This document shows positions 3,593 through 60,000 of a stretch of 64,000 bases of DNA, in pieces (the stretch's first letter is position 1; each line of letters opens with the position of its first letter). This stretch comes from Owenia fusiformis (lineage: Eukaryota), in NCBI GenBank assembly GCA_903813345.2, contig CAIIXF020000001.1, forward strand, positions 10,168,001 through 10,232,000, in the 5' to 3' direction. Made by a program: the position numbers and the translations under genes. Below the pieces are notes generated by a model that saw only the letters and a program-made list of their open reading frames with translations, did no database searches and was not told where the DNA came from.

Positions 3593-5527
3593 TACCTACT
3601 TCATTATTCCATTTCTAGAATATAATTAATTTAATAAATTCAGATACTAGTCGGAATGAAGTGCAACAGCGTCTAGTATAGATATCAGCATATTAGTGCC
3701 CCTCCTTAATCTAATGGATGATTGCAGCCCAACATTGTGGTAAGCCACCCATCTTCATCTTTGTCCTCCTGGACCGATGCACAGTGAGAGGTGCTATGAA
3801 CATCAGAATGGCAGCTCAAGGCAATGTTGGAATAAATTTGTTCTGAATAGGTCTTGGAGACCTTTCTTTATATGAGGAAAACTGTGGTCTTTTTATCAAA
3901 GTCTTGAATCCTGACTACATGGTGACTTGACGAGACACTAGGTGTATAAAAAGAACTTCAAACCTCCTGATAGAAGTTCAATGACAAAAATAATCAGCTG
4001 GACAAGATTGAAATAACCAGCCAGCTTGACAAGATTGAAATTAACTGGCATCCAAGATTTAAGATTATTATATTCTTATTCCTAGTGCATTTTCACAGAG
4101 ACATATTAAACATGTTTTATATGTCTCTGATTTTCAGTAACAGAAATTCAATGTTTCATCTCATAAGGCACATGTGCATCACATTAATGGGGTTGATCAC
4201 AAAGTTAAAGCAGTGAGTAGTAGATATTATATGTGAAACTACAAATAGTATATCTATCACTTATTTTCTGAAATAAAGTACACACTCAGGCATGTAATTT
4301 CTGCATGAGAGCTTGTCTTACTTTTACCTGACGGTGTACTTGCTAGTAATATAATGCACTTCATGTTGGACTTTAAAATGATGTTCCTGTTTATTCAGCT
4401 GCGTTACTGTTATGAAAGGGGATTAAGAAGTCTTCCTTTGTCTTAGACAGGTTGAGTACAGGCACTTATTTCTAGACAAGATTAAAAGATCATACATCAG
4501 TGATCATACTGTACACCTACAAATTGCAATCAAGTTTCTTAATCCTTTTTCCAGACAGGTAGTTGATTGAAAAAATATGTTTTTAAAAAGAATCATGGTT
4601 TTCTGTTGTAATCCCCCTGGCAGTTTGATTTCCTGAAGAAAATTGTTACTACATGTAGACTTGCTTCAAGGTTGTGTATCCCCCTCCCCCAGTGTACTTC
4701 ACCTTCACCTTGAAGCACGGTGAAGTAGATAAGAGGGAGGGGGTCCAGTGGTTACATGTGAATGTCAAAGTTGTATATTACCACTTATTATGTCAGTTTG
4801 TATAATTATATGTTCCACAGTATTATTTAGATATTTTTGTAACTTAGAAATTCAATTTTGAAATTGAAACCTAAAAAAGTGGATTTGTCATGCACCATTT
4901 TCCCTAAAGGCATGTTCGTTGTATTATCAGCATTTAGTTCTTCAGTACAAATTAAAATCATGATAATTATTATTCAAAAGCATATAAAGTGACATAATTG
5001 CATGTAAAATATGGGCATAGTGCATGCAATTTTAATCATACCCATAATCGTGAAGTCTTGCTTCAGCGGTTGTTGAAGTAGAAAAGGGGGTGGGGGGGAA
5101 GTCCGGGGGTCCAGGGTCTTGAACCAAGACTGGTAATCATGTGTTAGAATCAAAAATCTTTCTAAAAAGAGCATGATATATTACTAGTACACTGTTAGGA
5201 ATTAATAAGACACTAGATTAGTGTGTATGGATTAGTAATTGGTTGATTGATTTTCATCAGAGTGTCAGATGTACAGATACTACGCATATACTAGTTACAT
5301 GTACAATCTAACTAGAAAAAATATAATTATGAACATGTACACGTATATATATTTTAACCCATTTTTGATATGGTTTTGTTAACACACAATCTAATTCTTA
5401 ATATTTCATTTGCTTCACTGCTATGTCTAAATTTAAAAGTTCTTAAAATATTTGTTCTACACATATCTTGTATGATTAGAACAGTTATGCCATACAGTAG
5501 TATGCCTTTTTTTTCCTGTACATCTAT

Positions 5528-5727
5528 CAGCCCGTTGCCGGGCCGTTAGCCTGGGGGGGGGGGTGGCCTGGCCCTGGCAAAATTCTTTTTTCAAAATCAA
5601 GCAGTTTTCCACCATTCTCAGCATTTTTCATGTGAATTTGAACTCAAGTCAAAGCAAACCCCCCTTGGATTTTTTTGAAAAGTGAACTCCTTTGCAAAAG
5701 CTGGCTACAAGCCGGGCTACAAGCCGG
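5528..5727. mobile_element. MITE of the same family, degenerate TIRs, 5-bp TSD
   Basis: TSD TCTAT (5523-5527 and 5728-5732); internal GCAGTTTT.CACCAT.CT.AGCA and GAAAAGTGAAC blocks shared with 12046-12238. Confidence 0.7.
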
Positions 5728-5748
5728 TCTATAACATTTATAAGTACC

Positions 5749-5991
5749 CATGGACGTAGCCAGGTTTCAGTCAGGGGATGTGACCATGGAAAACAATGTC
5801 AGTTTACAGTCAGGGGGGTGCAATCGTGGCATAAGAGAGCCAAACATTTGATGTAACTTCTTTCAAAATTGAGCTAGAAACTTCAAATAAAAAGCATTTA
5901 AAGCTCTTTTCTTCTATCTCTTTTATTGGTTATGGGGGGGGGGTGCAATCGCACCAATCACAACCCCCCCCCCCCCCTGGCTACACCTATG
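5749..5991. mobile_element. MITE with 6-bp TSD
   Basis: CATGGACGTAGCCAGG...CCTGGCTACACCTATG imperfect TIR, TSD AGTACC (5743-5748 and 5992-5997). Confidence 0.72.
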
Positions 5992-7170
5992 AGTACCTGT
6001 AAATAAATGGGCCCGGGTAAATGGGGCTTGATGAAGATGATCTAGGAATGGATGATTGGGTCTAGAGATGATGAATGTATGTATCTTTATTAATCCCACA
6101 TCAAAGTGGGTTTCAAATGTATTTTAAAATCTTGATGGTCAGTGTGAAAAGTCAGTTCTGTGCTAATGTAAAATTACACTGCGCCCAGAGTCTAGTTATA
6201 AACTAAAATGAAGAGACGAAGCTAAGTGAAGTCCAACGAATGCAAAGGGTAATGTAAAATTGTATTATAATTTTGCATAATTTGTACAATATGTGTTGAT
6301 ATGAGAATAAACAATAATATATTTTACATACACCAATTTTTTGTTACACATTTAATTAAAACATGTCCTTGGGCAAGATCGGGGCTCTCAAGTTTCTTCC
6401 TAATTTTAAGGTCAAAAGTTAGGTTGGGGGGGGGGGGGGGTAATGTAAGACGATGGGAGGTTTGACAGAAAGCTACTGTAAGACTACATCTTTGAGGTGC
6501 ACAGGAGATTGATTTGGAAGTTTAGACAACTGATACCTATACGATAAAAATATATTTGCTCATAAATAATATAATTTCAATTTTTACCCGTTGTGACATT
6601 TGTGATAATTTTTAATTCAATCATTTTTCCAAATGTAACAATAAAAACATAAGGATGTTTAGATAAGGGATTGCTCTCCAAATAAATGTCTGGGATCACC
6701 GTTGATCTCATCAACAGACTATGATCATGAGTTTAGTCGGAAACAATAAACAAACTAAAAGAAAGTTTCAGTTGCTTCAACTTAATTCGTTTACAACCAC
6801 ATTGGAAGTCAAAGATGTGCTTTTCGTGGTAAACTCCCCAATTTGAAGACCCATCCCTGAGGAAGGGGTGTACACTTCCATTTTTGGGTTTCTGCTATAG
6901 AAAAAGCTAACGAAAGAAAAAAGGTAAGAGGAATGCCAAAAAAAGATTATATCATTAGCTGATGCCATCAAAAGATTGTTGTTATATTGTTCAAGGGACC
7001 TCAAAGGGCACAGAATCAAAGAACGTACCCCGGGGATGGGGTGATGAAAAGATTACGATTAAGCATAATTTTGATGTAATATTGCGATATTGAATTGATA
7101 ATAATGTGCAGCATTCAGAAGTTTAAGAGATAAGTAAATCAAAAGTTGAGTTGTAAGAATATGAATCCCC

Positions 7171-7392
7171 GATCAGTACCCAGATCAGTAATCTATTTCG
7201 GCGATCAGTTGATTGCATCAGCGTTCTCTGATCACGCGCTCACAAACTTGTCCCAAGCGCGTCAGGTGACTTAATTACCTTTAATTGGGCTTTGTTTCTT
7301 TTAACACCCGAAGCATTTGTTTATTCAACGCAACTAGCGTGTCATCCCTGGGCGACAAGTGTCTGACCAAAGATTACGTGGATTGGTATAAA
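7171..7392 (+). promoter_or_regulatory. Putative promoter of the homeobox gene (TATA box, inverted CCAAT, repeated GATCAG motifs)
   Basis: TATAAA 7387-7392 lies about 145 nt upstream of the ATG and is preceded by ATTGG 7382-7386. GATCAG occurs at 7171, 7183 and 7203, and TGATTGCATCA at 7210-7220. The region is locally CpG-rich. Confidence 0.5.
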
Positions 7393-7532
7393 GCGGAACC
7401 GCTGATGAGACCAACCAACACTTGTTGTCAACACCTCGAACAGTACACATCTCAGCGAATATTAAGAATAATCATCAAATCGGCGTATTTTCTCGTGTTA
7501 GCAGATCGAAACTTGCTATCTCAGTCACAAGA

Positions 7533-9149
7533 ATGAATTCAATCATGGCCTTGAACAACAACACATTGAGGGGATCATCCGACGTATTTCGAGCATTGGA
7601 GATCGATGTTGAGGACTACCCTGGACATCCAAGCTATCTCACTCTTCCCTTAACGCCCGTTCACGAGCCAGATTATCACATCAGAGCAGAGCCTCTCGCC
7701 CATAGTACCCCGGCGATGTCAGCGGATCTAGGGAGCGATGGCGAGCTAAGTCCGACGTTGAGCGAAATAGACTCAACATTCCTGTACAACACAATCAACG
7801 ATGGCCCGGAGCTGGATTTATGGAGCGACAATGCATGGGACGCACTTGGAATCGTGGAAGGGGACCTCTCGGTTGACATCGACTCTAACCCATCAACACT
7901 CTTAGATCTGTCATTGGCATCATCTGGTAAGTTGATTACACTTACACAGTTATCTTATAGACCCTGGACCCCCCCCCCTTATATTAGATGGGTGAGTCTT
8001 GAAGCATGACTAAAAAACTGCCGCTTGTGCAACTAGTTACAAATGTGCCGTGCAATATTTATCACAATCAAAACCATCTAGTATTACGTGTGACTTAAAA
8101 ATGAAATGATAATTTATTTTTTGGTTTATTGATATGTGATGCGAATATATTCCAATCAAATATTGCAGATTGAAAAAATTGATGATATAGTATTTCCAGA
8201 CTTGTAGTTAGTATTTCAAATCATGGTCTCACATATACCTATCACATTATCCAAATAAATAAAAAATTTATATCCTGAATAATTGCTGTTTGCGTTGTTA
8301 CAATTTGCAAATATAAATTGTGTTTTTTTTGTATTGCAGAATTCTACAGTAGCGAGTCTGACAGTTCAAGTAACCATAGCAACCCGGGTGAGTCCCCGGC
8401 TAACAACTCTACGAGTTTCGATAGTGACATTCCCTCAACGCCAACCAGTCGTCCATCAAATCAGCAACGTACACGAAGAGGGCAGTTGTCTTTGCGTCAG
8501 AAGTCACAGTTAGAGGATGCGTTCTTTAAATGTCCCAACCCAACAGAGAGCCAGCAGCGGAACCTTGGCAAAAAGATTGGAATCACAGTGGACAGTGTCC
8601 AGGTAAGATTTGCTTTTTGGATGGATCATCAGTCAAGTTAACGTTCCAACTTGTGTAATGGGTATCCACTTCTTTCTAGATAAAGAAGATCAAAACCCTT
8701 CCTCGGTCTGTAGTACTAAAATGACAAGGCTAGTTTTAGCGTGACTAACTTTATTAAAAACCGTGAATTATGTGAAAAAGTATTCATGAGCAATAAAAGA
8801 TGTCAGGCTTGTGGTTGATTAAAGTAGACCTGATTTTACATTGATTGATCCAATTTTTATTTGTATGCCTGTATACAAGTTATTTCTCAATCGCATATTT
8901 TAATGTGGAGATTTTACTATTTTATTAAAAGTGTTCTATTTTGTAAATTTTTAAATGTGTTTAATTTTGTACTTTCAGAAATGGTTCAGTAAACAACATG
9001 CTAGGTGTATCCGTGACAATCACCAGTATCTCTATGACAACTTGGACATCTGGATGGGTGTTACTAGCAACCGTACCTATCTTCTTCCCGTATTGTCTTC
9101 TTCTACGGATCTGGACTCAGAGGAACTCGTCTATAGTAACCATGATTGA
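7533..9149 (+). CDS. Divergent PRD-class-like homeobox protein, 3 exons, 275 aa
   Basis: Exons 7533-7926 (G|GTAAGT), 8340-8602 (CAG|GTAAGA) and 8979-9149 join in frame. Homeodomain 8465-9020: QRTRRGQLSLRQKSQLEDAFFKCPNPTESQQRNLGKKIGITVDSVQ|KWFSKQHARCIRDN, keeping R5, Q12, L16, E17, F20, P26, W48 and F49. The intron between codons 46 and 47 is the PRD-class position. An alternative ATG at 7545 has a good Kozak context (ATCATGG). Confidence 0.85.
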
Positions 9150-9194
9150 AGAGTGCTGCAATATCATCTCTATAAGTGCTGTAATATGATCCCT

Positions 9195-9630
9195 TCATAG
9201 TGATACTTCATCTGTACATAGTGCTACATCATCTGTACATAGTGCGACATCATCTGTACAGTGCTGAAACTGAACATAGTGCTCCATGAACTGTATTGCT
9301 GCAATACTAGCTGTACATAATACTACATCAACTGTACATAGTGCTCTGTCAACTGTATATAGTGCTACATCATCTGTACATAGTGCTCCATAAACTGTAT
9401 ATAGTGCTTCATCATCTGTACATAGTGCTCCATAAACTGTACATAGAACTGTAATATCATCTATACTTGGTGCTTCCTGAACTGTATATAATGCTGCAAC
9501 ATAGAACAAACATACACTGTATAAAGTGCTCCATCGACTATACATAGTGCTCCATCAACTGTACATAGTGCTACAACACCATCTGTACACAGTGCTCTCA
9601 GAACAATTCATGTGATTTGTAAATAGTGCT
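9195..9630 (+). repeat. 21-bp minisatellite (approx. CTGTACATAGTGCTMCATMAW) in the inferred homeobox 3' UTR
   Basis: TGTAHATA cores at 9213, 9234, 9312, 9333, 9354, 9375, 9396, 9417 and 9438 (runs with exact 21-nt spacing), then 9483, 9560 and 9618. Confidence 0.9.
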
Positions 9631-12045
9631 TATACACATATACATGTAGCTAGCATCAAATAGTACTTCATGGACAATCTATCTACACACAGTGCTTTAC
9701 CAATAATTCTTGATATTTTTACAACCACACAGTATTTTGCTAAATAATCTCATTTTCTGAGTGACTTTAGATTGTAAAGACAGTGTACGTATTCTGTTCA
9801 TTTTTTCTGAAAAATGTATTACATGCCAAAATTGATATTTGCCACTAAAATGAAACGAACTAGGAATGTCTCTTTATGCACTAAAGTGAAACAAACTAGG
9901 AATCTCTCTTTATGCCAAAATCCTCAACAGTATCAATTATATTCCTAAAGGTGGTGTTTGGAAATTGATAAATCAAATTGAACAATGATAATTTTTTAGA
10001 TAATAATTTCAATTACTATTCCTCTATGTACATAGTCAAAAACAAATATTTCTGTAATTCAAATACTAAAACTGCTTTTGTGTAGTAATAAAATGAATAA
10101 TTATATGTAAATATAGTAATTATCAAATTGATTTAATTTGTCTAGATGTAAATAAATACTACAACTTTATGATGATATATAACTTCAATATTTTGTTCAT
10201 ATGTATGGGTTTAACAAGTTCAAACATTGCGCTCCAATAGCCAGGATTAATTTGTTTACTCAAGCAGTTAGTCAATTAGTCTCAATCAAAAGACATGGAA
10301 CATTTTGTTCCTTTTTATTATCCCATATTTGTATATTCATATGCATATTAAGTCATATTCAACCATGTTATTATTCTATCCCTTATTATTCAACCAGTTC
10401 TTTGATATTTTCCATAGTAACCCAGCTGTTAAAATCAAATTGTTTTAGCTCAGTTTTTTGGTCAAATACATTTTCCCATGTTTAAAAGGTGTCACTAGTA
10501 GAAATGTACTCCTGCCCTCTGATGAGATACTACCTTTCCAAGATTCTAGTCCGAAAATGTTGCCAAAGTTATTAATGTGGGCATACAATGCCATCTATAA
10601 TGGTTCACGCCATTCCAAAAAACTACACTATCGGTGTCTCTATCCCAAGATATTATTGAAACCAGTGTATTCCTTCTGTTAAATGAAATACTGTGATGAG
10701 CCAAGATAATTAACACATGGTGACTGATTTGTCAAAATGATTTACCATCATATGTTCAATTTGAAGGATTATTTCTTGCTATTACAGTGTCTTGAATGAC
10801 AACCTGCTTTTCCAAAAATATCAAAACTTGATAGAAATTCCTCACAGTACAAGTTCCAAAACTGGAAAAACTACTTGCACATTTTCAATTTTACAAATTT
10901 CAGGGAAGGAGTTGTACATTTGGCTAAAAACTGGTCCGAATGGTTTAAAAATGCATGATTTTGATTTTGTTCGATCAAACCCTCTGAACCCCCTGGCTAT
11001 CATCCTCCTCACAAGCAGGTGTCCAGAATTTCATACCTCCTTCTTCCCCCTGCTATAACCAATTTGGAAGCACCAGATTTAACTGAATCATGTGTTCTAA
11101 TTATGCGCAATGACTTCTACATGATTACTGTCGCAGTGTTGCGACAGCCAACCAGATTGCGAGTTCTTAATTGGGGAAATGGTAACTGCTTATCGCAGGG
11201 GGTAAAAAGAAAGAATATATTCTGGATTTTGGAGCACTGTGATCGGAGGATGCCTGGCTATGGGGCTGTTCACGTTCATCTCAATCAAATTCCTCATTGG
11301 AATACTAATAATTTCAAGGTGATACTTTTCTTTACATATTATTATATAAAGTGTAAGCCAACAGGAACTTAATCTGTTATTGCTCGAATATATCTTTATG
11401 ATCTGACAATTTAATAAAATGATCAAGGGATACACTACAATGGGATAAAAGAACATCTATTGCATCTGTGTTGATATGTTCTAATCCACTCTCGAATAAA
11501 AATTCAGTTATTTATCTCTCTTGGACGCAAATCATTGATAAAAATGAATGCTTTCAATTATCAAGGTATTTAAAACATATGTAAAATGATATCCTAATTA
11601 CCGGAATGTCAGGACATCAATACCTTCAAAGAAACCCTAAGTATTAAGCAATTCTAATATCAATCCAATTTAATAAAGCATTAGTATAGATATTATATCA
11701 TATAATTTATTATGAAACTTTATAATATACAATAATGAGAACAATATCACAATTACAATTTACAATAAAGTATTTTGAAGAATGTCAACACATTTTTATT
11801 TATCATTAACAAACATATACAAATTAAAAATTTCCTTTACAAATTGTGTATGACATATAATTCTATGATACTAAAAGAAATCCAACCCCAGGTATGGCTT
11901 TCATTTACATTTATACACCACGCTATAATCTTAATTACATGCAATATACATGTAGATGTACATGCACATGGATAGTTTAGTAAACTTCTTTAGCTCCATC
12001 TCTTGTTACTGTTTAACACAATAATATCAAAAGTTGGATCAACTG

Positions 12046-51050: not shown

Positions 51051-54000
51051 TTAATGGCCATTAAGAACATTGTCCATAATGTCATTGAGATCGCTAGGTA
51101 ACTGCCCATGTCTGCGGACCTTTAAGGGAGTTGTTGGGGTTTGCTCTTCTGATATGTCCATATTAGCTGGATCTGAAGTATAAAAATTGTTTTACATAAA
51201 TAACAGTCTCATAGCACTATTAATAATTATATCGAAATAAACAGGTTCAGTTCAGAAAATCACAATTTATATCAAGGAGGTAGAAGGGATAGAATGTAAA
51301 TGTTGCAAGTGATATTTTGTTAAACAAGATGGCGACATCATGATGGCAAGTACTATATACTTTTTTAAAGTGCAATAAAAATCATGCCTTTGTTTCCCTA
51401 ACAATTCTATTTAATTTTATGAAATAAAGAATAAGACATCTGATCAAATATAGAACTCCTGGACTTTTTAGAAAATATGAATATGCACACATACCCATGG
51501 AACAATGAGCAAACAAATAGGAAATTGGACACCATATAAGGGTGCTTCTACCACAACCTTGTTGGATCATGGGTGTACTGAATATTTTAAACACAAACAT
51601 CTTCCAAATGTTTCAACAGATGGACAAAAGGATAAGGGAAGTTAACTGAATTCAACCAAGCACAGGGCCATAGTACTTTAGTGATGTAGCCCAGACTTCA
51701 TAATGATATGTCAACATGGAATCTTCCTCATGGTCATGGTCTATTCTTTCAAGATGATTTTTTCTGATTTTCTAGTCTTGAATTATTTCTCATGCAACAA
51801 GTACATACAAGAACACAAATGTGTACAAAATGTCCCCACCAAGTGGTGATCCCGTCAAATGGTTATCCTGAAAATGAGTACACAAGACTTTACCAACACA
51901 ATTTGAGGACGGAAAATCCAAAGTGGCCACCTTAAAATTTTACCCAGAATGCCAAAAATTAAGTCAGTTCTAGATTTTCATACTAAGAACCACCCCTGAA
52001 AATTTGAAATTGATCCGTCACACAGTTAACCAGAAAACATGTAAACAAGACTTTACAGACAAGATTTCAGGATGGAAAATCCAAAATGGCTGCCTTGACA
52101 TTTACCCAGAATGTAAAAAAACTAATCTGTTTGTAGATTTTCATACTAAGAATCATCCCTGAAAATATGAAATTGATCTACCAAATGGTTCACCTGAAAA
52201 CGGGTAGACAAGACTTTACAGACAAGATTTTAGGACAGAAAATCCAAAATGGCTGCCTTAACATTTACGCAGAATGCAAAAAAACTAATCAGATGTAGAT
52301 TTTCATACAAAGAATCATCCCTGAAAATTTGAAATTGATCAACCAAACGGTTCACCTGAAAACGCGCAGACAAGACTTCACAGACAAGATTTTAGGACCG
52401 AAAAATCCAAAATGGCCGACAATAAAAAAGTCCTTATGAGTTTTTGCTGATTTCTTTTTACAAAATTATCACATATAACTACTGTTAACAATAAAGTAGG
52501 CTTTTACAACAAAGTACATCTGAAATTATTTATTAAGCTACTAAATAGTTAAAGTATAAAAACTCAAAAACACCATCCAATATGATACAAAGTATTATTC
52601 AAAATGGCCGATAGGAAGTAGGTTCCGAGTTAAATTTTTTTCATCCACATCTATAGGCACTCATAAGTTATCCCTGAAAATTTGAAGGTGATATCTGTAG
52701 CGGTTTTGGAGAAAACTCCCGGACGTACGGACGGACAGACGGACGGACGGACAGACGGACGGACCAGTTGGACGCGCCTAGGCCGACAATATGGCCCCAC
52801 ACTATGTGGTGGGGACATAAAAAGTCAAACATACCAAACTTACTTTTTGCTTCTTGAGCTTCCTCTTTAAACCCTAGAGCAGCCGCAAACTCTTCTACAT
52901 CATACTTGCCATCATGGTTCAAATCAAACTCCTTCAGCGTGTCCTCATCAGGGGTATCAGGTCCCAGGAATCCTGGTAGATCCCTGTATTCAAGAAAGCC
53001 ATTTCCACGAATGTCCCACTTGGCAAAATATTGTTCAAGATCTAGAACATAAAATAAATAAATTCAAGATGGGCTGATTTGTGATGTCTGCTATGTGTCA
53101 CTGCTAAATAAGTTGATGTCGATTCTCAGGTGCAGATTGTACAATAAACAGTCATTCATCTACAGATAATTAATTAGAGAATGACTATGAGAGAATCTAA
53201 TAGAGTATTGTCACATTCGAATATACTGTATATTATCAATGCTGGTTCTTCTCTAAATGAGAAATGCTCTACTATCTATACATTCTGTACACATATGTTT
53301 TATTCAAGGATTTAAGCCTTGAACTCAGTGCATTGTGTGCTGAACCATTCCACGAAGGTGTTGTTTCCAAATCCAATTGGAATGAAGCAGCCACAATGCA
53401 TTAAGTCTTGGGCTTAAATTTTTTTCACACATTGCAAAATATTTTCTATAAAATCGCCTAAAAGATGCAAAATCACCCAAAGAACATATTTTCAATGAAA
53501 CAGGGGTCAAGTATTGGAAAACTCAATTTCAATCTCAATCACTAAGCAACTGTATGCGTTATTGATATTTCACACACTGTTTATTATGTGAATACTCTGT
53601 TTGGATTGGCTGGAATCAGACACACCTTGCCTAGCTATGTGTGAATTATAAATAATACACTTCGAGTACAGTACATTGTGTTCTGTAAAATACAGGATGA
53701 AGTTAAATAAAATAATACGATGTATTACTTCATTGTCAATCTCACTAGTCTGTACTCAGAACTACTTACCTTCCATGTCATTAATGTTAGGAATGGTAAT
53801 GGCAGCACTGCTAGAGACAGACTGGGTCGTTACTTCTATAAACAAGACAAATATATATTAATGGCATTACACAAGTGAATGATGAATTAAAAAAAAAGGT
53901 GTAATGTTATCTTGATATGAATTCTTGTTAATGTAAAGTTTATGGAATAGATATAAGATCAATTATTGTACTGGTAGCTGATTTAAAAAGCAAAGCATGT

Positions 54001-57000: not shown

Positions 57001-60000
57001 CAAAAATGTGTCCACTTACACAGGAGCATACCAATCAATGACAGTGGTTGTACTTACAGGGAGAAGAACAGAGGATATCAGTTTTTTAGGAGCATCTGCT
57101 AATTTTCTCTGCAGTTCCATCATTGTGGAAAAAGTAGGATCTATAAGTTCACTCTGGTGCTGACCTATATCAGCCATCTGGAACAGATAAACATGAGTCG
57201 ATTAGCTTATGTAGTCTTCAGATATACCTTAACATGTTGTCCATCAGGTATATAAAGGGTTGTCCCTATTCCCTTGGTATATTAACATAATATCATATGA
57301 TAAAATGAAAAAAATAAAACCCTACTTTTTCTCTCCATGTATGTCTTACCTCATTGTCAGGTTGGGTAATATTCATAAAGGCTGCAAATAGAGTATATCT
57401 TACCTCATTGTCAGATTGGGTAATGTTCATAAAGGCTGCAAACATAGTATATCTTACCTCATTGTCAGGTTGGGTAATGTTCATAAAGGCTGCAAACATA
57501 ATATATCTTACCTCATTGTCAGATTGGGTAATGTTCATAAAGGCTGCAAACATAGTATGTCTTACCTCATTGTCAGGTTGGGTAATGTTCATAAAGGCTG
57601 CAAACATAGTATGTCTTACCTCATTGTCAGGTTGGGTAATGTTCATAAAGGCTGCAAACATAATATATCTTACCTCATTGTCAGATTGGGTAATGTTCAT
57701 AAAGGCTGCAAACATAGTATGTCTTACCTCATTGTCAGGTTGGGTAATGTTCATAAAGGCTGCAAACATAGTATATCTTACCTCATTGTCAGGTTGGGTA
57801 ATGTTCATAAAGGCTGCAAACATAATATATCTTACCTCATTGTCAGATTGGGTAATGTTCATAAAGGCTGCAAACATAGTATGTCTTACCTCATTGTCAG
57901 GTTGGGTAATGTTCATAAAGGCTGCAAACATAGTATGTCTTACCTCATTGTCAGGTTGGGTAATGTTCATAAAGGCTGCAAACATAGTATATCTTACCTC
58001 ATTGTCAGGTTGGGTAATGTTCATAAAGGCTGCAAACATAGTATGTCTTACCTCATTGTCAGGTTGGGTAATGTTCATAAAGGCTGCAAACATAATATAT
58101 CTTACCTCATTGTCAGGTTGGGTAATGTTCATAAAGGCTGCAAACATAGTATATCTTACCTCATTGTCAGGTTGGGTAATGTTCATAAAGGCTGCAAACA
58201 TAATATATCTTACCTCATTGTCAGGTTGGGTAATGTTCATAAAGGCTGCAAACATAGTACCCATCATCTGCTGAAGGCCTGCTGTTGCATTAAATCTTGT
58301 TGGTTCATTATAACCTTGATTGGCTGCCTGCATCTGTAACAGTTATTAGTATCTTTCAAGTAGTATCTTTCAAGTCTTCATCAAAACCTAATATTTTGTT
58401 TTGGTATCCTTGAATGAGCCCATGACTTGTACATTGTTTGGTGAACATATTTACAACAAACAAAAATTGATGGAAGATTCAAATTTTTTATGGCATAATT
58501 GACTGGGTTTTATTTCTTTATATTCCTTGTAATATTTTAGGATTTCTCACTTGTAACAATACAATGCAATGATTTTCAAATAATATAAAATGAGATGTTT
58601 TTTTGTTTTCTTCAACATTTGACAATATATTCTAGAAATTTATTTTTCTTTATGTACCTTCGAGTAATCTGGTGAAACTAATTTCTTACATGCACATAAT
58701 GTTTTCAGTTACCTGGCTTAACTGTTTCTCAAAAGTGGTGACCATTTTTGTGATGTTGTCTATTTGTGCTGTTATGGTAGCCAGCGTGACATCAGAAAGG
58801 GGAACAGTGTTGCCATCTATCTTTGTAGGTGTTGTAAGGTTGTCTGAAGCAGTAGTCAGGTCAACATTTTGCACCTACAAGTACAGTATAATTGTTTCAG
58901 TAAGCAAATATACTTCAAATGGCCATGGAATAAATTTTTATAATGGCAACAAAGCTCCATTGCTATGACATCTCAACTTATTTTTGTGGCTGTATCTTTG
59001 TTAGTCACATGAGAAAGTGAAAATGAAATTTCTTCAGATTTTAAAAACTGACATGATGACAAAATATCCGTTAACTTTCATGACATACAGTACCTAAACA
59101 TAACTTATATCATATAACTTTATTCGGCAAAACTTTGACTTTGAGGAACTCAACATACAGCTTTTTGCACTGCCTCAGTGACTAATGTTTTGATGATCTG
59201 CTCCTGGCTCCCATTCAGCACCATTCGTATATGGGGTGACAACTCAATCAGGTTAAGTCTGGTGTCCACTGCAACTGTGCGATTTTCTACAACTTTCAGC
59301 TGGCTCTGCAACAATTAATGTAAATAGAGAGGTTACACATAAATTTACTATACTTTAATCTCATATTTTTACACTGAGAGATTTCCATATAATTCTGGAC
59401 TTAATTAAGTACATGATTTATTCATTAACACAAAGCATGATGGTTTTAATAATTTTCTTATTTTAACTAAATTAATGTCTAAATCATAAATGCTCAATGA
59501 GTAAACTTTTGGATATTACAAGTAAATGTTGACTCTTTTTTATAATGAAATGAAAGATGCAGTACGCAGGGGCTTAGCCTGCAATTATCAAGGGGAGGAG
59601 GTTAACATCACTGTGAGTGACGATAGCCCCAAAAAGGGGGGTGTACAGATGTTCACCCCCTGGCTATGCCCATGGTATGTGTATTGATCAAATGAAGATA
59701 ATTAAGCCCTAAAAGTCTGATTGCAAAACCTTTTAACAGTGGTAAATGTTATGCCTTGGTCACATTTGCTCTGATTTTCACTACGGCGCCCGGGCGAATG
59801 AGTATTTTGTTCAATATTGAATAAAATATTGAACAATACACTAGATCGGCCATGCGCCGGGAGCCGGCTGATGGATCGGAGCAAATGTGACCCAGGCATT
59901 AACAAGTATTTCAACCAATTAGTAAAATGAAAAGGTCACAGAACAATATAGCAAATTTCCTATGTATAGTCTTTGATGATGTTTTATCTCCAAATTACCC

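Follow-up and report, generated by a model that had tools for sequence, protein, structure and literature searches.

A transcribed, polymorphic minisatellite with consensus Pumilio octamers in the 3' untranslated region of a divergent homeobox gene of Owenia fusiformis

The locus

The 3' untranslated region (UTR) of a homeobox gene of the annelid Owenia fusiformis contains a 21-bp minisatellite, and its intact units carry the octamer TGTAHATA, which on RNA (UGUAHAUA) is the response element of Pumilio/PUF proteins. The gene lies in a stretch of 64,000 nucleotides (contig CAIIXF020000001.1 of assembly GCA_903813345.2, positions 10,168,001 to 10,232,000 of the forward strand) that was analysed as a whole; this stretch is called the window below, and all coordinates refer to it. 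The feature is real, transcribed and polymorphic. It is a variable number tandem repeat (VNTR) of 21-bp units, repeated head to tail, whose copy number differs between alleles, and on the reference allele it provides 12 consensus Pumilio response elements within 413 nt.

Reading of the open reading frames and exons gives the homeobox gene three exons on the plus strand (coding sequence 7533-7926, 8340-8602 and 8979-9149) and a product of 275 amino acids. Transcription was followed in four sequencing runs mapped to the window (X1, X3, X9 and X13); the spliced RNA contigs come from two studies, and X3 and X9 were judged to be cDNA by their content, their introns being removed. The array and the features around it are the following.

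9150..9700, plus strand: minisatellite of about 27 x 21 bp with a 42-bp higher-order repeat, well preserved over 9196-9597, with degenerate edges on either side
9213..9625, plus strand: 12 consensus Pumilio octamers from a motif scan, 8 UGUACAUA, 3 UGUAUAUA and 1 UGUAAAUA
9368..9409, plus strand: 42-bp higher-order unit with 2 octamers, missing from an X3 RNA contig (joint 9367 to 9410, depth 16.3, 255 nt on the shorter side)
9843..9915, plus strand: a further tandem repeat of the UTR, 36 bp x 2 with 91% matches (Tandem Repeats Finder)
9150..10034, plus strand: 3' UTR as delimited by RNA contigs of X1, X3 and X9, about 885 nt
10002..10007, plus strand: AATAAT, the only hexamer resembling a poly(A) signal 20-35 nt 5' of the observed 3' end (hexamer scan)
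10027..10034, plus strand: 13th octamer (motif scan), coinciding with the 3' ends of the RNA contigs at 10030 (X9), 10031 (X1) and 10034 (X3)
10106..10154, plus strand: two octamers (10106 and 10147) outside the observed transcript, in the gap (depth 0 at 10125-10346) before a convergent minus-strand transcript

Structure of the array

The 12 octamers of the array start at 9213, 9234, 9312, 9333, 9354, 9375, 9396, 9417, 9438, 9483, 9560 and 9618, with spacings of 21, 78, 21, 21, 21, 21, 21, 21, 45, 77 and 58 nt, the first of them 64 nt 3' of the stop codon (TGA 9147-9149). Together with the distal matches at 10027, 10106 and 10147, these are the fifteen sites of the original prediction, which had proposed a Pumilio-element array at this place from the letters of the sequence; all were found on the plus strand exactly as listed. 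Its view that the sites read correctly on the sense strand only also holds, as the span contains a single minus-strand match (10025-10032) and this is a palindromic overlap of the 10027 site.

Tandem Repeats Finder describes the array either as 19.4 copies of a 21-bp period at 9196-9596, with 66% matches, or as 9.7 copies of a 42-bp period at 9196-9597, and a wrap-around parse extends it to 27 units (9157-9696). On the mRNA an intact unit carries the sequence UGUAYAUAGUGCU. The units are of two subtypes (..ACATCATC and ..CCATAAAC), which differ at unit positions 14, 18 and 20 and alternate along the array. The word AGTGCT occurs 16 times between 9152 and 9691, and since the first occurrence stands three bases 3' of the stop codon, the repeat starts directly after the coding sequence. 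A unit that chanced to contain the octamer was presumably multiplied by replication slippage or unequal exchange to give the array.

Octamers reach a density of 14.7 per kb in the 3' UTR; outside it the window has 0.29 per kb per strand. The whole window contains 53 TGTAHATA matches, compared with 19.08 expected from dinucleotide shuffles, and none of 100 shuffles reached 53. With 9150-10154 set aside, 37 matches are left against about 19 expected for the whole window; the word is thus about twice as common as expected outside the array, as the original prediction had cautioned.

Within the window the array occurs at one place. A blastn search of the UTR against the 64 kb gave 11 rows, all within the region, and no other copy of the array, and a loose fuzzy scan of the window for the 13-nt core found only near-matches at chance level outside it. 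Contigs that lie only partly on the stretch number 0 of 22 in X9 and 1 of 16 in X3, and almost none pass from the array into foreign flanks. A transposon origin was rejected, no inverted repeats flanking the array. The same applies to a known RNA family: the Rfam match to mir-329, on the minus strand over the 36-bp repeat, scores 22.9 bits against a cut-off of 76.8 (E 0.12) and represents chance. A minus-strand open reading frame of 119 amino acids (9195-9554) is a mechanical product of the stop-free 21-bp (7-codon) unit, and the orientation of the read pairs indicates plus-strand RNA; antisense coding was likewise discarded. Elsewhere the window contains other tandem repeats, among them one of 54 bp x 17.1 copies with 96% matches (57339-58259) and one of 163 bp x 3.4 copies with 84% matches (51856-52416).

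Transcript and 3' end

The array is part of the mature mRNA, on the sense strand, because spliced contigs lead without a break from coding exons across the stop codon and on through the array; that the array belongs to the transcript, as the original prediction had supposed, is thus borne out by RNA. Contig 10 of X3 (983 nt) covers 8421-8599, skips a GT..AG intron to 8976 and runs on past the stop codon and across the array as far as 9821 (blocks 8421-8599, 8976-9367 and 9410-9821). Contig 15 of X9 (830 nt) has both introns out and extends to 9397, and other X9 contigs of similar depth reach 10030. Depth is 0 within both introns in X3 and X9. Among the raw RNA reads of X13, 10 of 12.7 million were mapped; they lie in exons and at 9126-9791 (about 4 of the 10), none in introns, and those on the gene always have their first mate on the minus strand. 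The minisatellite accounts for 45-62% of the 3' UTR.

In X1 the gene is mainly unspliced (introns 1 and 2; 8016-8903). A 739-nt contig (8414-9152) spans intron 2 at a depth of 33, equal to that of the exons; intron 1 shows lower depth and no splice joint was reported, yet depth is 0 past the 3' end. This intron coverage looks like pre-mRNA or intron retention, or like carry-over of DNA.

Depth falls to 0 in 10125-10346 in all four runs, and AATAAT at 10002 is the putative poly(A) signal. The original prediction had placed three distal octamers near two AATAAA candidates. The hexamer scan did find AATAAA at 10087 and 10151, and the octamer at 10027 stands at the very end of the transcript, where it may be cut by cleavage; the octamers at 10106 and 10147 and both AATAAA hexamers, however, lie beyond the observed 3' end (10030-10034) and do not belong to the transcript as observed. 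About 310 nt past this end a convergent minus-strand transcript is found (10347-10650): depth returns from 10347, X1 and X3 contigs run from 10379-10382 on, and X13 pairs beyond 10458 have the opposite orientation.

Variation between alleles

That the array would be tunable in copy number agrees with the data to the extent that copy number does vary: the X3 allele lacks exactly 42 bp and differs in its number of sites. In a minor X1 contig TATA is inserted behind 9293, which turns a broken unit into TGTATATA and adds one site, while a T>C change at 9620, found in X1 and in one X13 read, abolishes the site at 9618. Larger rearrangements occur in X1 contigs of low depth, with skips of 276 and 36 and a step back of 85; they may represent alleles or assembly ambiguity. 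Across the material the number of octamers ranges from about 10 to 13. The 36-bp repeat is polymorphic as well: contigs of X1 and X3 have just one copy (joint 9868 to 9905, which skips 36).

Sequence differences are unevenly distributed along the transcript. Contig 15 of X9 differs from the reference by 15 letters in 408 nt of exons 1-2 and by 1 in 422 nt at 8976-9397; contig 10 of X3 differs at 1 of 392 nt and at 2 of 412 nt along the UTR. The greater divergence of exons 1-2 compared with exon 3 and the array could be due to haplotype structure, repeat homogenization or constraint. The 5' UTR (7459-7526) has six small indels and four substitutions relative to the reference in both X3 and X9, and the leader is therefore also highly polymorphic.

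The homeobox gene and its product

The features of the gene 5' of the array are as follows.

7387..7392, plus strand: TATAAA box, a candidate promoter from the sequence read, about 40-50 nt 5' of the RNA contig starts
7430..7926, plus strand: exon 1, 5' UTR and coding sequence from ATG 7533 (open reading frame; GT..AG joint 7925/7926 to 8339/8340 in X3 and X9 contigs)
8340..8602, plus strand: exon 2, homeodomain residues 1-46 (Pfam Homeodomain E=5.4e-05, profile positions 1-45; joints on both sides)
8979..9149, plus strand: coding part of exon 3, with homeodomain helix 3 (KWFSKQHAR), the C-terminus and TGA 9147-9149 (joint 8599-8602 to 8976-8979, GT..AG)

RNA contigs of the gene begin at 7430 (X3) and 7440 (X9), and the TATAAA box presumably serves as its promoter. 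Further upstream, at 5090-6440, several long G or C homopolymer runs (e.g. near 5090, 5557, 5935-5980 and 6424) are possibly remnants of a repeat element.

The product is identical to an unnamed O. fusiformis protein on record (P0001). Residues 175-228 match the Pfam Homeodomain (PF00046) with 31.8 bits against a cut-off of 22.9, which secures the assignment as a homeobox gene made in the original prediction; exon 2 by itself scores 23.4 bits, and the Homeobox_KN profile remains under its cut-off on this protein (15.2 bits, cut-off 24). The homeodomain has 60 residues, an intron between positions 46 and 47, and Ser at position 50. The near-invariant Asn51 is replaced by Lys and Arg53 by His, both in helix 3 (residues 221-229).

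The gene also proved as novel as had been supposed. A word-indexed protein search with 271 candidates matched the gene's own product only. A full HMMER search of 1.84 billion representatives gave 45 proteins at E<=0.001, with the alignment essentially confined to the homeodomain; source names were checked for 10 of the 45, and the 7 that were named are from sheep, nematodes and fungi, plus one Owenia paralogue. Neither search returned an orthologue. Within the window, tblastn with the three exon peptides found self matches alone, all others having E > 1, and hence no paralogue in the 64 kb. An Owenia protein of 237 amino acids (P0023) is 32% identical over 124 residues and shares the unusual KWFS[K/R] helix (KWFSRRRQ), which suggests that Owenia has a small homeobox family of its own, with altered contacts to DNA.

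The PRD/PRD-like class is characterized by a 60-residue domain without the TALE insertion, an intron at 46/47 and Ser, Gln or Lys at position 50. Domain length, intron place and Ser50 of the Owenia protein agree with these traits; its sequence affinity is non-specific and Asn51 is Lys. Matches to solved structures are mixed (PDF2, Oct-3/4, DUX4, Exd, Aristaless and Paired, E 1e-4 to 1e-2), with DUX4 among the best, though weak (E about 5e-4). Given the weakness of the matches to PDF2, Oct-3/4, DUX4, Exd and Paired, the gene cannot be assigned to a homeobox class. It may fairly be called a novel or orphan, highly divergent homeobox gene.

Comparison with known systems

Pumilio/Nanos response elements are well known from animal 3' UTRs, such as those of Drosophila hunchback, where box B of the Nanos response element (NRE) is UGUACAUA, and cyclin B. 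The Owenia array shares with them, and with reporter arrays of UGUACAUA (PMC11602169), the octamer itself, its place on the sense strand of a 3' UTR and a layout of several copies that would act together. Its 13-nt spacers are near the 8-12 nt that served best in those reporters (PMC11602169). Natural Pumilio targets, in contrast, usually carry one to a few dispersed sites kept by selection, whereas the array has 12 sites derived from one minisatellite, variable between alleles and without site-specific conservation.

NORAD has 12 repeat units over 5.3 kb (PMC11602169) and 18 UGURUAUA motifs, and is described as lacking a classical tandem repeat (PMC11294396). Like the array, it bears many Pumilio sites per RNA that stem from duplication of a repeat unit. 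Unlike the array, it is an abundant non-coding RNA with long units over 5.3 kb and G/C-rich flanks; the Owenia sites belong to a coding mRNA, form a true minisatellite with a 21-nt period and are about 10 times denser. A NORAD-like decoy is a non-coding RNA so abundant that its sites rival those of all other targets taken together, and the RNA with the array encodes a protein of 275 amino acids.

Expression-modifying VNTRs (e.g. PMC8024321, PMC8096271) are likewise transcript minisatellites, polymorphic in copy number, that could tune expression. Their reader is usually unknown or acts on DNA, whereas the unit described here matches the code of a defined RNA-binding protein. The host gene itself recalls the fast-evolving, embryo-restricted PRD-like homeoboxes (mammalian ETCHbox and DUX; novel homeoboxes of lophotrochozoans, PMC5322547) in being an orphan with a divergent 60-residue homeodomain, an intron at 46/47 and Ser50, and differs from ETCHbox/DUX-type genes in its Lys at 51, its weak, mixed matches and the absence of a class assignment.

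In the literature searched, judged mainly by titles and abstracts, we found no description of a Pumilio-site minisatellite in an mRNA. None of the papers found on O. fusiformis together with Pumilio concerns this gene, and those listed for Pumilio combined with VNTR terms lack the word Pumilio.

Would Pumilio act on the array?

To bind a cytoplasmic 3' UTR, PUF-domain proteins normally need no more than one perfect consensus octamer. The reading that we favour, with a probability of about 0.45, is that the array mediates Pumilio-dependent repression or decay of the homeobox mRNA in cis. A conserved PUF-domain protein, Pumilio, would bind the octamers, several molecules loading on each mRNA at the 13-nt spacers, and would recruit the CCR4-NOT deadenylase; the homeobox mRNA would then be translationally repressed and/or quickly degraded wherever Pumilio is active, and the length of the array would set the strength of the effect.

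The properties of the array make this reading chemically plausible, with a well-matched spacing. In a human massively parallel reporter study, in which the standard element was UGUACAUA, more elements per tile led to stronger binding and repression, and arrays with 8-12-nt spacers were the most repressed; among five-element arrays with spacers of 1, 4, 7, 10, 13 and 16 nt, 10 nt was the best, and flanks with more than 50% G+C abolished repression (PMC11602169). The spacers of the Owenia array are 13 nt long, in keeping with the 21-nt period, and contain 31-54% G+C, mostly 46%. Taken whole, the array has a less stable predicted fold than shuffled versions of itself (z = +3.08), all 100 of which fold at least equally well. 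In another annelid most germline and multipotency genes are maternally expressed, and pumilio is not among the exceptions named in the accessible part of that study (PMC10740902).

Several observations weigh against this reading. The 12 sites of the array are one motif amplified by tandem duplication and not 12 independent events. A unit would bear the motif by chance 0.57% of the time (717 of 125,756 random 21-mers from the window carry the octamer on the strand read), and since the sites were copied by tandem duplication, the statistical weight of all 12 is that of this one event; moreover, the motif was picked post hoc among many RNA motifs. The predicted unpaired probability is 0.27 for octamer bases compared with 0.50 for the spacers, a pairing that fits the reported tendency of Pumilio elements to pair with each other (PMC11602169). 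Single sites are gained and lost between alleles, by the T>C change at 9620 and the TATA insertion behind 9293, and the 42-bp deletion removes two.

The pattern of decay within the array points in the same direction. The octamer survives in just 12 of the 27 units. Over these units the consensus is matched at 0.80 for the seven fixed positions of the octamer, 0.87 for GTGCT and 0.69 for the other eight positions. When 8-nt windows are compared with the fifth position left free, the octamer window ranks first (12 intact versus 4-10), a test biased towards the window in which the free position falls on the variable C/T; with the best free position chosen for each window, the octamer, with its 12 intact copies, is surpassed by A.AGTGCT (15) and.A[A/T]CTGTA (14). 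Thus, the Pumilio octamer is not preferentially kept within the array, and these comparisons give no evidence of selection on the sites. The core-specific conservation that the original prediction had looked for is consequently not found, AGTGCT and A[A/T]CTGTA being kept in more units than the octamer. Its statement that intact cores vary mainly at the permissive fifth position is circular, as intact cores were defined in this way, and the T variants at 9354 and 9396, separated by 42 bp, therefore represent one change copied by the higher-order repeat. What it saw as drift of the spacers is mostly the alternation of the two subtypes: low values occur chiefly at positions 14, 18 and 20, and the other spacer positions match at 0.81.

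It is quite possible, if short of probable, that the array is a neutral 3' UTR minisatellite in which UGUAYAUA is incidental, multiplied by slippage and tolerated rather than used; Pumilio may touch such an RNA without a selected or measurable role. The lack of preferential retention of the octamer, lost from 15 of the 27 units, and the variation of sites and whole units between alleles would be expected in this case. The 66% matches and degenerate edges are those of a decaying repeat, a second, unrelated polymorphic repeat is present in the same UTR, the octamer has about twice its expected frequency throughout the window, and some 20 other tandem arrays (24 rows, some overlapping) occur there. 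However, only 0.57% of units would carry the motif on the sense strand beforehand, and repression scales with the number of sites in reporters (PMC11602169), so that 12 inert sites would be unexpected if Pumilio were co-expressed. Improbable, in our view, is that another factor, such as a Musashi-type protein or a small RNA, recognizes a wider or adjacent core, A[A/U]CUGUA...AGUGCU, as the functional word, with Pumilio absent or a partner. AGTGCT is intact at 16 places and CTGTA at 17, compared with 12 for the octamer, and T10 and G11 are the most invariant positions of the unit (0.96 and 0.93); this high retention may nevertheless merely reflect which units decayed. The Musashi-type motif AUAGU occurs 13 times, but it is 5 nt long and frequent by chance, and no candidate reader was identified for the wider core, nor any Rfam family beyond one match below threshold.

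The remaining two explanations concern the 3' end and the abundance of the transcript. The 19 UGUA words of the array could be upstream cleavage and polyadenylation elements of the CFIm type rather than Pumilio sites. Such enhancers lie no more than about 100 nt from the cleavage site that they serve, and RNA contigs continue for 400-800 nt past the array with no 3' end seen inside or just behind it, which makes this proposal hardly credible. It is very unlikely, too, that the mRNA is abundant enough to act as a sponge that titrates Pumilio off other targets in the manner of NORAD, in spite of its 12 sites per molecule. Contig word depth, about 47 in 49 million letters in X9 and 16-21 in 99.5 million in X3, hints at high abundance, but depth is a poor measure of expression, runs found with the gene cover the gene by choice, and X13 yielded just its 10 reads. 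Furthermore, the RNA is a coding mRNA, and the G/C-rich flanks that limit the repression of NORAD itself (PMC11602169) are unmatched by the spacers described here.

Implications for Owenia

If cis-acting repression by Pumilio holds, one can imagine the array as a heritable 'rheostat' of mRNA lifetime: each gain or loss of 21 or 42 nt would add or remove one or two Pumilio sites, the amount of the transcription factor in the Owenia embryo or germline, or the time for which it persists there, would vary from allele to allele, and at peak expression the array might also buffer free Pumilio. We consider this extension doubtful, though worth stating.

Pumilio sites are normally studied as single conserved words, and the only well-known RNA with many sites, NORAD, is a vertebrate non-coding decoy. 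The array would be a ready-made dose series on how the number and spacing of sites set repression in vivo. Embryo injection and staged transcriptomes are established in Owenia, and the idea is therefore directly testable. Should the sites be inert, the array would be an ordinary 3' UTR VNTR and a caution against inferring function from motif counts inside repeats. As a working element, it would show a tandem repeat creating post-transcriptional control for a newly born developmental regulator.

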